DNA of 64,000 nucleotides from Alphaproteobacteria bacterium (GTDB taxonomy: Bacteria > Pseudomonadota > Alphaproteobacteria > Micavibrionales > Micavibrionaceae): NCBI GenBank assembly GCA_025451095.1, contig JANWLB010000013.1, positions 4,244 to 68,243 of the forward strand. The letters are read 5' to 3'. Below are positions 36,590 to 45,080 of the stretch, in pieces. Below the pieces are notes generated by a model that saw only the letters and a list, made by a program, of their open reading frames with translations, did not search any database and had not been told where the DNA came from. Position 1 is the first letter of the stretch, and each line of letters starts with the position of its first letter. The translations under genes were made by a program, and so were the position numbers.

Positions 36590-37423
36590 ATGAGCACTGT
36601 CTTTTGCAACGGATCGTTCATGGACGCGGCGGCAACACCTGTCGGCATAACCGACCGGGGATTCACGCTGGCCGACGGGATATTCGATACGCTTCTGGTT
36701 ATAGATGGTCAGCCCCTTCTGACAGAAGCCCACCTCACAAGGCTTCAGGATCATGCCAGACAGGTGCGGATTCCCCTGGCCCTTTCCGTCGCTGATCTTA
36801 GAAAGGCAGCCCTGACCCTGATTCAAAAAAACGGCTATACCAAAGGACGCTACGCTCTGCGCACGACGCTGACCCGGGGCCCGGCACCGCGCGGGCTTCT
36901 GCCGCCGGAACCGCCCACGCCCACCTTGCTAATGACCATTCAGCCCGCCCCGGCACCGGACACGATCCCTCCCATCCATGCCTTTACAGCAGGCAGTACG
37001 CGGCGGAATGAGCATTCGCCGCTATCGCGCATCAAATCCCTGCAATATGGCGACAATCTTCTGGCGCTGATGGAAGCGCGGGACAAGGGCGGTAACGAGG
37101 CCGTGCTGCTGAATACGGCCGGGCACGCCGCCTGCGCCACCGCCGGGAATATATTCATCCGCGAAGGCGGAAAACTGATCACCCCGCCCCTGAAGGACGG
37201 TGTCCTGAATGGCATTGTACGGGAAACCCTGCTGCGGCAAACAGAGACGCGTGAAGAATCACTGACTGTGAAGCGGATTCAGCAGGCAGAAGCCATCTAC
37301 ATAACCAGCAGTCTTTCCGGTGTACGCGGCCTGAGCAGTTTTGACGGCAGGGCCCTGCCGGGCGCGGAAGATCCGTTCCTGAAAGAGATGATTACGAGCC
37401 TTCCGCAGAAGGATGCGGCGTAA
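36590..37423 (+). CDS. pabC: aminodeoxychorismate lyase / class IV aminotransferase
   Basis: Fold-type IV PLP pattern (DRGFTLADGIFDT, IKSLQYGDNLLA, LNGIVRE). Positioned in the pab operon. Confidence 0.7.
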   Translation: MSTVFCNGSFMDAAATPVGITDRGFTLADGIFDTLLVIDGQPLLTEAHLTRLQDHARQVRIPLALSVADLRKAALTLIQKNGYTKGRYALRTTLTRGPAPRGLLPPEPPTPTLLMTIQPAPAPDTIPPIHAFTAGSTRRNEHSPLSRIKSLQYGDNLLALMEARDKGGNEAVLLNTAGHAACATAGNIFIREGGKLITPPLKDGVLNGIVRETLLRQTETREESLTVKRIQQAEAIYITSSLSGVRGLSSFDGRALPGAEDPFLKEMITSLPQKDAA

Positions 37424-37754
37424 GAGCCAAGGCCGAGCGCTTTTTCTGCGCGGCGGACGAGCCATTCGAGACCTCAGCCTCAAGAATGCACCGGCCCCGG
37501 TCATCGACAAGATTATTAAGCCGGTCGGTAAGGCTCTGGGCACGAACCATGCAATAATGAAGTGGCAGTAAAACATGGCATTCGCCATAGGCGTGGCCGA
37601 CATCGACCTCCAGAGTGCGGTCCAGCCCCTGAATGGCCTGCGTGATCGCATCAAGGTGCTCGGAGATATACCCGCCCGCCAACGCCGGACGAAGCGTTAC
37701 GCACAATGAACGCTGGGCCTGCGTATAATCATGAAGGCTGCCGGGCTTGATCAT
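37392..37754 (-). CDS. hypothetical protein downstream of atpC
   Basis: 120-aa ORF whose ATG is preceded by CAGGAG with a 4-nt spacer. I recognise no family. Convergent overlap of 32 nt with pabC. Confidence 0.4.
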   Translation of the reverse strand: MIKPGSLHDYTQAQRSLCVTLRPALAGGYISEHLDAITQAIQGLDRTLEVDVGHAYGECHVLLPLHYCMVRAQSLTDRLNNLVDDRGRCILEAEVSNGSSAAQKKRSALALTPHPSAEGS

Positions 37755-37835
37755 AAAACTCCTGCTGTTTCATAACCATTATGAAACCCAGAAATTAATG
37801 CCTAGTTATCAGGAAGTTACCAAATGATTACCGGA

Positions 37836-38252
37836 TCAGGCCGTCACGGCCGCCAGTTTTGCCTGCGCCACCGCCAGCTTACGCTGAATCCGCACCTTTT
37901 CCGCCTCATCCGCCGCCATTCCCATGTCCTCGGTCAGATTGCTGATGGCTTTTTCCAGATCGGCTTTGCTCAGCTCGTTCACATTCACAGCCTCCTCGGC
38001 CAGGACAGTGCAGCTCGTAGCTGTCACGTCGGCGAAACCGCCCGTGATGAAGATACGCTTCGGCTGTCCCTGATCGGCCGCGTAGACTTCAATCACGCCG
38101 GGGCGGATTGAGGCCACCAGGGCGCTGTGTCCCGGCAGAACGCCAAAATCCCCCTCCTCGCCCGGAACGACCACCATCTTGGCCGGCTCAGAGATCAGCT
38201 TGCGCTCAGGAGAAACGAGCTCAAAGTTAAAAGTCTGTAACGAAGCTGTCAT
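37836..38252 (-). CDS. atpC: F1 ATP synthase subunit epsilon
   Basis: FELVSPERKL...VVVPGEEGDFGVLPGHSALV is the classic epsilon N-domain. Confidence 0.93.
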   Translation of the reverse strand: MTASLQTFNFELVSPERKLISEPAKMVVVPGEEGDFGVLPGHSALVASIRPGVIEVYAADQGQPKRIFITGGFADVTATSCTVLAEEAVNVNELSKADLEKAISNLTEDMGMAADEAEKVRIQRKLAVAQAKLAAVTA

Positions 38253-38512
38253 GCAGCAAGTCTCCAGTGCTTAAGATAGGCGGACACAGGCATGATAATT
38301 TCCGGCTTTGAGGAATCAAGCGGCCCTCTTTTGAGAACCGGGGCATCCTTCCCACCGAACGTGATAGACGCCCCTTCATGATTGCCATTAACAAACAGGA
38401 AGACCTTTTTCGCTGCTGCCGACAGGTTTGTATGCCGCAAAATAAATCCTTCGGAAGCCAGCTTCCGAGCGGCCCTGTCGACCGTTTTGTCGCCTGTGTC
38501 CTTAAGTCGCAT
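38249..38512 (-). CDS. hypothetical 87-aa basic protein inserted between atpD and atpC
   Basis: Starts 5 nt after the atpD stop, and its stop overlaps the atpC start (ATGA). No family recognised. Confidence 0.5.
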   Translation of the reverse strand: MRLKDTGDKTVDRAARKLASEGFILRHTNLSAAAKKVFLFVNGNHEGASITFGGKDAPVLKRGPLDSSKPEIIMPVSAYLKHWRLAA

Positions 38513-42844: not shown

Positions 42845-42847
42845 GTA

Positions 42848-44398
42848 TCAAGCCGCCTTGGCCTGCGCTCCGACGAACCCTTTGCCGAATTTCGTCAGAT
42901 ATTCGGCCAGTTCCTTCTCCAGAGCATCATCGAGTGCTTTCTTGGTGCGGATACTTTCCAGGATTTGCTTGCCGCTGGCGCGCATATCCTGCATCAGGGC
43001 CGCTTCATAGGCATTGACCTGGTTAACCGGGACGTAATCAAGGAAGCCCCGCGTTCCCGCGAAGATCAGTACGACCTGCTCCTCGACCGGCACAGGTGCA
43101 TATTGCGGCTGCTTGAGCAGCTGGGTCAGACGCGCACCACGAGCCAGAAGGCGCTGCGTTGCCGCATCGAGATCGGAGGCGAACTGCGAGAACGCCTCCA
43201 TCTCGCGGAACTGCGCCAGCTCCAGCTTGATCTTGCCGGCCACCTGCTTCATGGCCTTGATCTGCGCCGCCGATCCCACGCGGGAAACGGACAGACCGAC
43301 GTTGATCGCGGGGCGGATGCCCTTGAAGAACAGGCCTGTTTCAAGGAAGATCTGGCCATCGGTGATCGAGATCACGTTCGTCGGGATGTAGGCGGAAACG
43401 TCGCCGGCCTGTGTTTCGATGATGGGCAGCGCGGTCAGAGAACCGCCGCCGTTTTGGTCATTCAGCTTTGCCGCGCGCTCAAGCAGACGGGAGTGAATGT
43501 AGAACACATCGCCCGGGTAGGCTTCGCGGCCCGGGGGGCGGCGCAGCAACAGCGACATCTGGCGATAAGCGACCGCCTGCTTGGAAAGGTCGTCATAGAT
43601 GCACAGGGCGTGCAGGCCGTTGTCGCGGAACCATTCGCCCATCGCGCAACCCGCGTAAGGCGCCAGGAACTGCATCGGCGCGGGATCGGATGCCGTCGCA
43701 GCGACAACGATGGAGTATTCCATCGCGCCCTGCTCTTCCAGCTCCTTCACCAGCTGCGCCACAGTGGAGCGTTTCTGGCCAATGGCAACATAGATGCAAT
43801 ACAGGTGATCTTTCTCGTTTTTCGAGCCGTTAAAGTTTTTCTGATTCAGGATGGTGTCGATCGCCACGGCGGTCTTGCCGGTCTGACGGTCGCCGATGAT
43901 CAGCTCCCGCTGGCCGCGGCCGACGGGAACAAGCGCGTCCAGCGCCTTCAGGCCTGTTTGCATCGGCTCATGCACGGATTTGCGCGGGATGATACCCGGC
44001 GCCTTGACCTCGACCCGGCTGAAATCCTTGGTCTTGATGGGACCCTTGCCGTCGATCGGGTTGCCCAGCGCGTCCACCACGCGGCCCAGCAGCGCCCTGC
44101 CCACCGGCACCTGCACGATCTCGCCCGTCCGGCGCACGATGTCGCCTTCCTTGATCGAGCGGTCATCACCGAAAATAACCACACCGGCATTGTCAGCCTC
44201 GAGGTTCAGCGCCATACCCTTGATGCCGCCCGGAAACTCGACCATCTCGCCGGCGCAGACCTTGTCAAGGCCGTACACGCGGGCAACACCGTCACCGACG
44301 GACAGAACCTGTCCGATCTCAGCCACATCGGCCTGCGTGCCGAACTCGGCAATCTGCTTTTTCAGGATCTCGGATATTTCAGCAGCACGAATTTCCAT
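42848..44398 (-). CDS. atpA: F1 ATP synthase subunit alpha
   Basis: GDRQTGKT (Walker A), the pattern following [26 protein letters not shown], and a length of 516 aa. Confidence 0.98.
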
Positions 44399-44456
44399 TT
44401 CTTTTCCTCTTGGCTCTGGAAGTCTATTCTAAAAAAAACTAAAAAGTTAAAAATCC

Positions 44457-45080
44457 TCAGGCCGCCTTATCGGCGCCTGCATTCATCATCGCGCGCTGGA
44501 GACGCTCCAGTTTGCGCTTCACGGAATCATCAATCATGCGGGAGCCGACCGTAACGATCATACCTCCCAGAAGATCCCTGTTCACTTCGACGTTCAGCGC
44601 AACGGCTGAACCTGTCGACTTGCTCAGCTGTTCCTGCAGGGCGCGGGTCTGGGCGGGGGTCAGGGCGTGCGCCGTCTGGACACGCGCCTCAACCTGGCCG
44701 CGGCGGCGGCGCAGTTCGTTGCGGAAAGTGTTGATGATGATCTGGGCAGCGTACAGGCGGCCGTTGCGCGCCAGGACGCCGATGAAATTCTTGGTCAGGG
44801 TATGGAACTGCGCCTTGTCGGCCAGGGCGCTCAAAGCTTTCCTTTGTTTTTCACGGGAAACCAGCGGGCTTTCCAGAAGATTTTGAAGGTCCGGGCTGCT
44901 CCCGAGCATGGCCTGCAGTTCGAGCAAATCTTTTTCAACGTTTTCAAGAGCTTTGGCCTGAGCAGCGATATCGATCAGCGCCACCGCATAACGTGTTGCC
45001 ACAAGACCCGATCCTGTTGAACCTGCTGCCACTTTCCGTGTTCCCCGCACTATGGATGACGTCTGGCGTCGGTTTAGCAT
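44457..45080 (-). CDS. atpH: F1 ATP synthase subunit delta (OSCP)
   Basis: VATRYAVALIDIA... and the C-terminal GGMIVTVGSRMIDDSVKRKL are typical delta/OSCP features. The start is taken at Met28 of the tracked ORF and is uncertain. Confidence 0.85.
   Translation of the reverse strand: MLNRRQTSSIVRGTRKVAAGSTGSGLVATRYAVALIDIAAQAKALENVEKDLLELQAMLGSSPDLQNLLESPLVSREKQRKALSALADKAQFHTLTKNFIGVLARNGRLYAAQIIINTFRNELRRRRGQVEARVQTAHALTPAQTRALQEQLSKSTGSAVALNVEVNRDLLGGMIVTVGSRMIDDSVKRKLERLQRAMMNAGADKAA

Follow-up and report, generated by a model that had tools for sequence, protein, structure and literature searches.

The operon for the F1 part of ATP synthase in a Micavibrio-like predatory alphaproteobacterium is interrupted at three of its internal junctions by genes which, we suggest, are passengers of the operon and not components of the enzyme. 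The operon lies on the minus strand of a 64,000-nucleotide (nt) stretch of contig JANWLB010000013.1, here called the window, and all coordinates refer to the whole of it. The junctions atpA-atpG, atpG-atpD and atpD-atpC together contain five additional genes (2.2 kb), and orf120, the sixth, lies 3' of atpC. We assign a probability of about 0.65 to the reading that the inserts are passenger (‘cargo’) genes, which use a well-expressed F1 operon and are not ATP synthase subunits. The reading is based on the following. Close relatives carry different cargo at a given junction, and the PDDEXK_3 family occupies different junctions in different genomes. The largest insert, a PAP2 phosphatase, is predicted to be an exported acid phosphatase. 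Finally, orf104 and orf131 have no homolog in the searches made and are replaced by other genes in the nearest lineage. The first-pass annotation had offered two alternatives. That of insertions exploiting a strongly expressed operon stands in a softened form, as passengers that need not be selfish, and for that of F1 regulators or assembly factors we obtained no positive evidence.

Architecture of the F1 operon

The F1 subunit genes form a complete set of five on a single strand, ordered delta-alpha-gamma-beta-epsilon. The full minus-strand order, atpH-atpA-orf114-atpG-orf104-PAP2-orf131-atpD-orf87-atpC-orf120, was reproduced from the list of open reading frames (ORFs) and the start contexts, in agreement with the order first proposed. 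Related loci used for comparison are designated by L-numbers. atpH (F1 delta/OSCP; 44457..45080) matches Pfam OSCP from residue 54 of the long ORF (E 4.8e-49) and the NCBIfam delta model (E 8.5e-58). Its reading frame stays open to 45161, and its alignment with atpH of L165 (63% identity) begins at residue 39; the start is probably at 45080 or further downstream. Next come atpA (F1 alpha, 516 amino acids (aa); 42848..44398), orf114 (42500..42844), which encodes an acidic soluble protein in the atpA-atpG junction, and atpG (F1 gamma, 311 aa; 41546..42481; Pfam ATP-synt, E 4.3e-97; NCBIfam gamma, E 9e-128). The atpG-atpD junction contains orf104 (41230..41544), the PAP2 phosphatase gene (40391..41233; Pfam PAP2, E 1.9e-7; NCBIfam PhoC, E 6.8e-12) and orf131 (39993..40388), whose product is acidic and predicted to be helical with a disordered tail. 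They are followed by atpD (F1 beta, 475 aa, GTG start; 38518..39945), by orf87 in the atpD-atpC junction (38249..38512), which encodes a small basic protein with a pI of 10.2, and by atpC (F1 epsilon, 138 aa; 37836..38252; Pfam ATP-synt_DE_N, E 2.2e-26, and NCBIfam epsilon). The last gene, orf120 (37392..37754), overlaps a convergent Aminotran_4 gene by 32 nt. The identity of atpA and atpD, both taken from the ORF list, rests on 72-92% tblastn identity to relatives (72-89% for atpA, 81-92% for atpD), and that of atpH, atpG and atpC on Pfam and NCBIfam.

The joints between the genes are tight. orf114 starts 3 nt after atpA and is separated from atpG by 18 nt. orf104 starts 1 nt after atpG and overlaps the PAP2 gene by 4 nt; orf131 follows the PAP2 gene after 2 nt and precedes atpD by 47 nt. 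orf87 starts 5 nt after atpD and overlaps atpC by 4 nt, and 81 nt lie between atpC and orf120. These spacings are those reported at first; the 1-nt joint of atpG and orf104 hinges on the longest-ORF start of orf104.

No intrinsic-terminator-like or sigma-70-like sites were found at the junctions, and the totals equal those of shuffled sequence; the scan covers the sigma-70-type consensus only. The region 37000-45600 contains only short repeats at chance level, none of them marking the inserts, and the whole window is free of Rfam matches. A mobile element (insertion sequence, miniature inverted-repeat transposable element or integron cassette) was considered and rejected: the inserts have no flanking repeats, the joints are too tight for attC, and Pfam reveals no transposase or integrase domain. 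An assembly artefact was rejected as well, since the same architecture is present in independent assemblies.

Coding evidence for the inserts

A codon model was trained on the long genes of the window, and six frames were scored for each insert. The annotated frame ranks first of six in every case. The codon profiles of orf131 (score 0.35; GC content at third codon positions (GC3) 0.63), PAP2 and orf120 are typical of the host genome; orf114, orf104 and orf87 have lower scores (0.13-0.21) and a GC3 of 0.45-0.55, compared with ~0.67. Same-strand ORFs cover 94-100% of the three expanded junctions of the window, as compared with 22-49% for shuffled sequence. For orf114, PAP2, orf87 and orf120, four of the six inserts, there are orthologs in the same position with 43-53% identity. 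In the ortholog pairs of orf114 and orf87 differences are most frequent at the third codon position, then at the first and then at the second, as they are in atpG and atpC. Coding conservation in independent genomes is thus seen for orf114 (L001), orf87 (L161-L169) and orf120 (L162, L163, L166-L169), and for orf104 and orf131 the evidence is that of the codon frame only. Hence, the concern voiced at the outset, that the inserts might lack coding signature or conservation, does not apply to orf114, PAP2, orf87 and orf120, which have positional orthologs. These four are real genes under protein-level constraint.

When all six inserts were compared with Pfam and NCBIfam, PAP2 gave the sole match. 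The five small ORFs have no match at E<=1 in these collections, also not to zeta (DUF1476), AtpI, AtpQ/R, Atp11, Atp12, IF1 or mitochondrial epsilon. This bears out the initial impression that they are unlike the zeta inhibitor, AtpI and AtpQ/R. With respect to a phage or anti-phage defence origin, none of the six matches PHROGs or PADLOC models at E<=0.1. PDB sequence searches with orf87, orf131 and a profile of the orf114 family, and tblastn against plasmids with orf131, orf104 and orf120, gave no match either. The large homolog searches with orf114, orf131 and orf104 used a word-index prefilter and returned only self matches, and a prefilter of this kind also limited part of the search for orf120; the full HMMER search was made for orf87 only. 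Since the prefilter missed the true, 43%-identical orf114 homolog in L001, the orphan status of orf104 and orf131 is provisional.

Recurrent insertion across the clade

The atpG sequences closest to that of the window come from Micavibrio-like alphaproteobacterial metagenome-assembled genomes, and the host genome is that of a Micavibrio-like alphaproteobacterium. None of the genomes or metagenome contigs has an atpG more than 70-74% identical to it. We mapped the atp genes on 160 related loci, taking loci with an atpG identity of at least 60% as the clade and junctions of at least 200 nt as expanded. The delta-alpha junction is expanded in 2/14 loci of the clade and 4/91 of other alphaproteobacteria, the alpha-gamma junction in 6/19 and 3/125, the gamma-beta junction in 9/18 and 6/134, and the beta-epsilon junction in 14/18 and 7/98, respectively. 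Pooled over the last three junctions, 31 of 57 are expanded in the clade and 14 of 355 in the others, an odds ratio of 29 from counts that are not phylogenetically independent. A control string of helicase, pabB-like, pabA-like and pabC-like genes has 0/16 expanded junctions in the same loci. The earlier statement that atpHAGDC is essentially never interrupted was therefore too strong, as the gamma-beta and beta-epsilon counts for other alphaproteobacteria (6/134 and 7/98) and the cultured strain ARL-13, described below, make clear.

The 34 expanded atp junctions (20.4 kb) are covered by ORFs to 0.88 on the same strand and 0.45 on the antisense strand, with 0.28 in shuffled sequence, and no convincing opposite-strand genes were found in them. 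Clustering of 47 ORFs, 41 from the gaps of relatives and the six of the window, yielded five small families and ~30 singletons; seven further ORFs come from L163, L165 and L169, and the total counted is 52. Signal-like N-termini occur in 8/52 junction ORFs, mostly PAP2 copies. The families present in at least two lineages are PAP2 (gamma-beta), Amphi-Trp PF20068 (beta-epsilon), the orf114 family (alpha-gamma), a 241/258-aa family (alpha-gamma), the orf87 family (beta-epsilon), a membrane-protein pair and PDDEXK_3 (PF13366), the last two being counted from comparisons made later than the 47-ORF clustering. PDDEXK_3 lies in the beta-epsilon junction in L001 but in the delta-alpha junction in L082. 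Beyond the clade inserts are sporadic and comprise a 23S_rRNA_IVP protein (PF05635; L159, gamma-beta), a DUF3291 protein and a methyltransferase.

The neighbour-joining tree of AtpA+AtpG+AtpD (no bootstrap) places the window next to L001, and the basal loci L011 and L088 are uninterrupted. The F1 operons of L005 and L013 are uninterrupted as well. The operon of the closest lineage was reconstructed from L165 and L163 (atpA 89%, atpG 74% and atpD 89% identical to those of the window). It is more heavily loaded than that of the window and reads atpH-atpA-[89 aa, 258 aa]-atpG-[286 aa, PAP2]-atpD-[83 aa, 117 aa]-atpC-121 aa. Only PAP2, orf87 and orf120 are common to the two. In the searches made, orf104 and orf131 are unique to this genome, and orf114, orf87 and orf120 are each restricted to 2 lineages. 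Comparison of the atp loci of relatives, proposed at the outset as a check on the conservation of the inserts, thus gives a mixed picture, with four inserts having positional orthologs and orf104 and orf131 being lineage-specific. The inserts show the features of ORFan genes that have entered a native operon: they are lineage-restricted, lie on the same strand with operon-like spacing and are absent at the position in relatives.

One of the loci used in the reconstruction, L163 (GCA_035494535.1, DATJGZ010000032.1), is a Micavibrio-like atp region with atpD 89% identical to that of the window and was deposited as ‘Patescibacteria group bacterium’; the label is probably a binning error.

The PAP2 insert

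The PAP2 protein aligns over ~215 residues with the acid phosphatase of PDB entry 7f17 (E 4.8e-22), and class A enzymes are also matched. Its Pfam PAP2 score is above the gathering cutoff (31.3 versus 27.2 bits). The motifs KX6RP (K162...R169-P170), PSGH (P190-S191-G192-H193) and (S)RX5HX3D (R226...H232...D236) are invariant in five aligned atp-resident copies. A signal peptide is predicted from hydropathy: the N-terminal hydrophobic segment reaches a Kyte-Doolittle mean of 2.02 at residue 4 in a 19-residue frame (KD19) and 2.93 in an 11-residue frame (KD11), and the orthologs have it likewise. Such orthologs occupy the same junction in seven lineages (L004, L008, L029, L084, L086, L163 and L165). 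Judging from these sequence features, the PAP2 insert is a putative exported class-A-like acid phosphatase with intact catalytic motifs. If exported as predicted, it cannot partner the cytoplasmic F1, and thus operon membership here implies no ATP synthase function. Its role would plausibly be phosphate scavenging during feeding.

The protein resembles the class A non-specific acid phosphatases (PhoC, PhoN; PDB 7f17, 1d2t, 2a96) in the ~215-residue alignment, the three motifs and the predicted signal peptide. However, its score falls far short of the NCBIfam cutoff for PhoC equivalogs (45 versus 430 bits), it has an insertion of ~50 residues, and residence in an atp operon is unusual for the class. 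In L004 the PAP2 gene between atpG and atpD (5317-6834, plus strand) is a tandem fusion with two complete PAP2 modules in one 505-aa ORF.

The small inserts

orf114 has a weak Shine-Dalgarno (SD) motif and a GC3 of 0.45. Its ortholog occupies the same position in L001 (43% identity, E 1e-26), together with two tandem paralogs. The AlphaFold2 (AF2) single-sequence model has a predicted local distance difference test score (pLDDT) of 47.8 and is too poor for use. The three tandem members of the family in L001 (8418-9845, plus strand) fill the 1.75-kb atpA-atpG gap and have a common C-terminal motif I-P-P-I/L-x-P, which suggests birth-and-death evolution of a small gene array within the operon. 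A relation of the orf114 family to the 241/258-aa family of the same junction was tried and rejected (hhalign E 0.009, probability 4%).

The two orphans of the atpG-atpD junction differ in their coding signals. In the public gene call orf104 begins at Met33 (72 aa) with its start at 41448, and ~97 nt after atpG would then be untranslated; an SD-like motif precedes both candidate starts. orf104 has the lowest codon score among the inserts (0.13; GC3 0.55). The word-index search found only itself, as the 72-aa public gene call. In the closest lineage an unrelated 286-aa ORF takes its position (L165), and the 104-aa ORF at the same position in L010 was rejected as a relative (E 1.0). orf131 is preceded by a strong SD (AAGGAGAG). 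The word-index search likewise retrieved the self match only, and the gene is absent from L163, where PAP2 directly precedes atpD. Its AF2 single-sequence model (pLDDT 57.7) is too poor for use, and Foldseek comparison of the model with PDB gave no structural match (best E = 2). We provisionally regard orf104 and orf131 as lineage-specific orphans.

orf87 has a weak SD motif. The full HMMER search found one true homolog among 1.84 billion representatives, P0009/P0013 (83 aa, 47-49% identity, E 4e-14). It is located upstream of atpC, 5-6 nt after atpD, on seven independent contigs (L161-L164, L166, L167 and L169). orf87 also matches repeats of the giant proteins P0010-P0012 weakly, which we attribute to chance or composition. 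A relation to the 108-aa ORF of L002 and the 116-aa ORF of L161 was also discarded, as the local hidden Markov model search gave nothing and the pairwise E of 0.003 came from a four-sequence database. In the sister lineage the spacer between atpD and the orf87 homolog varies: it is 6 nt in L162 and L163, L166 has a ~500-nt gap (190-704), and L169 carries an extra 138-aa ORF with a signal peptide (158-574, plus strand). Turnover of cargo thus goes on even among close populations.

orf120 has a good SD. Its 121-aa ortholog (53% identity, E 1e-30) occurs in L162, L163 and L166-L169, where it likewise overlaps the convergent Aminotran_4 gene by 32 nt. L006, L007 and L013 lack it and have atpC right beside that gene.

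Expression of an interrupted F1 operon in strain ARL-13

Published RNA-seq data for cultured Micavibrio aeruginosavorus ARL-13 give a gene expression index (GEI) for the attack and attachment phases (PMC3189940, Additional file 4). The index rises from 0 in attack to 4.4 in attachment for GMV_673 (delta), to 18.7 for GMV_674 (alpha) and to 8.4 for GMV_675 (gamma), from 0.4 to 24.7 for GMV_677 (beta) and from 0 to 8 for GMV_679 (epsilon) (PMC3189940). The hypothetical gene GMV_676 (402 bp), between gamma and beta, goes from 0 to 3.8, and GMV_678 (252 bp, hypothetical), between beta and epsilon, from 0.5 to 12.1 (PMC3189940). The next genes downstream behave in the opposite way, with 69.3 in attack and 9.7 in attachment for GMV_681 and 32.8 and 7.4 for GMV_680 (PMC3189940). 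The atp genes are thus silent while the cells swim freely in the attack phase and come on during growth attached to prey (PMC3189940), and the interleaved genes GMV_676 and GMV_678 switch with them, whereas the flanking genes do not.

The interrupted F1 operon is therefore already visible in the public annotation of ARL-13 and in the 2011 data table, and the text of the paper is silent on it (PMC3189940). ARL-13 belongs to the same broad group and has hypothetical genes likewise at gamma-beta and beta-epsilon, but there are two inserts compared with five in the window, and neither PAP2 nor an atpA-atpG insert is listed for it. At 83 aa the product of GMV_678 is exactly as long as the orf87 orthologs P0009/P0013, and at 133 aa that of GMV_676 is close to the 131 aa of orf131; in both cases the likeness is one of length only. 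Together with the junction scan and the spacers of -4 to 47 nt, the ARL-13 pattern suggests co-transcription of the cargo with the atp genes in this genome too.

Proposed mode of insertion and alternative explanations

We suggest that the F1 operon serves as a permissive, strongly expressed landing site, which would be active in the growth phase. Transcripts starting at the atp promoter would run on through the cargo, whose translation would depend on coupling or on re-initiation at the 1-5 nt spacers and the ATGA overlaps. The operon being essential, only inserts that spare downstream expression would persist. An untranslated stretch would expose the transcript to Rho-dependent polarity, and Rho is encoded in ARL-13 as GMV_7 (PMC3189940, Additional file 4). 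The inserts that survive would thus be those on the same strand, free of terminators and translated from end to end. Such a polarity filter would explain why the junctions are filled by same-strand ORFs with tight joints even where the proteins are unrelated.

Several points weigh against this interpretation. Co-transcription is itself inferred, and alphaproteobacterial promoters within the upstream ORFs would escape a sigma-70 scan; the Rho-polarity filter is likewise an inference. The fixed positions of orf87, orf114, orf120 and PAP2 fit vertical inheritance but also a functional link to the adjacent subunit. The control for a ‘hot spot’ is one neighbouring gene string, and the junction counts share the phylogenetic non-independence mentioned above. 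Finally, the orphan calls for orf104 and orf131, which are provisional, depend on an insensitive prefilter.

The second of these points leads to the view that some of the small proteins, orf87, orf114 and orf120 being the best candidates, are lineage-specific accessory factors of ATP synthase (inhibitors, chaperones or extra subunits) kept in the operon for stoichiometric co-expression. Their position and tight coupling are indeed kept across lineages that have diverged to 66-74% in atpG and atpC (orf87 and orf120, and orf114 in L001), the codon-position pattern indicates protein-level constraint, and the 83-aa gene that ARL-13 has between beta and epsilon, as long as the orf87 orthologs, follows the expression of the atp genes. 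However, no known ATP synthase factor is matched in Pfam or NCBIfam at E<=1 and searches with orf87, orf131 and the orf114 family match no PDB sequence; each family occurs in only 2 of ~22 lineages, and other members of the clade, presumably with a working ATP synthase, carry unrelated genes or nothing at these places. The inserts also evolve much faster than the atp genes (43-53% versus 66-89% identity), and the AF2 models of orf131 and orf114 are of low confidence. We thus hold accessory functions to be improbable. A bolder variant is that the F1 operon of Micavibrio-like predators is a platform, or nursery, for fast-evolving small feeding-phase proteins, at least one of which has become a new ATP synthase modulator for the switch between attack and growth. 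The best candidate would be orf87, possibly matching GMV_678, and we mention the idea as a speculation with the odds well against it.

A different view concerns orf104, orf131 and many of the singletons in relatives, which might be translated spacers or very young de novo ORFs, open only since their translation prevents polar effects on the atp genes downstream. The searches made gave no homolog for orf104 or orf131, unrelated ORFs replace them in the closest lineage, orf104 combines the lowest coding score with an ambiguous start, and the AF2 model of orf131 has a pLDDT of 58. Moreover, the junctions of relatives contain ~30 singleton ORFs and yet reach a same-strand coverage of 0.88. On the other hand, orf131 has a genome-typical codon score (0.35) and GC3 (0.63) and a strong SD, the word-index searches missed real orf114 homologs, and orf87, orf120 and orf114 also seemed to be orphans at first. 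For the group as a whole we consider this view unlikely, although it is plausible for orf104 and perhaps for orf131. Still less do we expect that the F1 ‘operon’ is no longer one transcription unit, with own promoters for each gene or block and junctions that are ordinary intergenic regions with neutral gene turnover. Insertions are frequent at all junctions in the clade, the promoter scan covers one type of consensus, and the expression of the atp genes of ARL-13 varies four- to six-fold, all of which would fit. But the gaps before atpG, atpD and atpC in the window are 18, 47 and -4 nt and leave no room for intergenic promoters. All inserts in the 34 junctions are co-oriented, which is unexpected under neutral intergenic turnover, and the delta-to-epsilon block of ARL-13, including its hypothetical genes, switches together whereas the flanking genes do not. 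Such a fragmented operon is accordingly very improbable.

Relation to known systems

The canonical alphaproteobacterial atpHAGDC agrees with the window in its five genes, their order and their common strand, with the F0 genes outside the cluster, and its proteins are 50-89% identical to those of the window. The median lengths of its junctions are 20-37 nt, and just 2-7% of them reach 200 nt or more, unlike the window with its five extra genes in three junctions and one more after atpC.

The kind of event, in which accessory or ORFan genes join a native operon, is already known. Insertion next to native genes is a common way for ORFan genes to enter operons, and the native promoter then drives their expression (PMC1480536; Price, Arkin & Alm 2006, ‘The Life-Cycle of Operons’). 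The same work cites flhE and btuE in cautioning against reading function from membership in such an operon, and finds that genes are added at the ends of existing operons much more often than they are inserted inside (PMC1480536). In contrast to the ORFan-native pairs described there, the insertion here is internal, affects three junctions of an essential conserved operon and recurs across the clade with fast turnover.

The 23S_rRNA_IVP (PF05635) and PDDEXK_3/GxxExxY (PF13366) families, small genes of the ‘intervening-sequence’ type, tend to lodge in highly expressed loci. Both occupy atp junctions in relatives, but none of the inserts of the window belongs to either. For PF13366 multiple transfers between lineages have been described (PMC3424549).

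Regulators and assembly factors of ATP synthase (zeta/DUF1476, AtpI, AtpQ/AtpR, Atp11/Atp12, IF1) are likewise small, and some are encoded in or near atp operons. The inserts of the window differ from them in having no sequence match and, for orf131, no structural match, and in not being conserved across the clade. An extra ORF between gamma and beta was reportedly described in the atp operon of Rhodobacter (Rhodopseudomonas) blasticus by Tybulewicz, Falk & Walker in 1984. We take this report as a lead only; it would be a single gamma-beta insert, as opposed to the clade-wide pattern at several junctions seen here.

Neighbouring regions

Convergent with the F1 operon is a plus-strand series of pabB-like Chorismate_bind (33051-34457), pabA-like GATase (34454-35044), ATP-binding cassette (ABC) ATPase (35041-35784), ABC-2 permease (35784-36587) and pabC-like Aminotran_4 (36590-37423) genes, the last of which is convergent with orf120. 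The joints are -4/-4/-1/+2 nt. Since the three pab-like genes are contiguous in the relatives L006, L007, L013 and L166-L169, the ABC ATPase/permease pair (35041-36587) represents a second tight insertion into an operon of the same genome.

Divergent from atpH, the plus-strand block 45227-51437 encodes an AMP-binding enzyme (618 aa), a PAP2_3 membrane phosphatase (353 aa), an MBOAT acyltransferase (389 aa), an Exo_endo_phos protein (319 aa) and the product of one more gene, and resembles a cluster for the modification of lipids or polymers. In L165, too, atpH adjoins a PAP2_3 gene; other relatives have a different upstream cluster. Elsewhere in the window, a polyhydroxyalkanoate (PHA)-type cluster on the minus strand (8427-12196) comprises a short-chain dehydrogenase/reductase (SDR) gene (8427-9158), a thiolase gene (9155-10366) and a gene whose alpha/beta hydrolase product matches PhaC_N (10420-11658). 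Two small orphan ORFs of low GC3 (11684-11884 and 11888-12196) lie ahead of these genes, with spacings of 25 nt and 3 nt. Three compositional outliers, 17674-18831 (plus strand), 54048-54800 (plus strand) and 63582-63956 (minus strand), have a GC3 of 0.48-0.55 versus ~0.67 and low codon scores, and may be recent acquisitions.

Implications

Although the kind of event has precedents, its scale appears to be undescribed: several junctions of an essential operon have received inserts again and again, clade-wide and with fast replacement of cargo, with totals of five or six inserts in the window and in the sister lineage. An essential operon whose products are needed in fixed ratios (alpha3 beta3 gamma delta epsilon) is usually deemed untouchable. 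Here, unrelated genes have repeatedly been gained and replaced inside it throughout a clade.

This is also a warning against annotation by association, and the inserts should not be named ATP synthase subunits. If a real link to ATP synthase exists, the shortlist on which to look for it consists of orf87, orf114, orf120, GMV_676 and GMV_678, in the setting of an obligate predator which keeps its atp genes off in the attack phase. More broadly, the interrupted F1 operon offers a natural system for how orphan and new genes gain expression in native operons and for the constraints that such operons place on the inserts.

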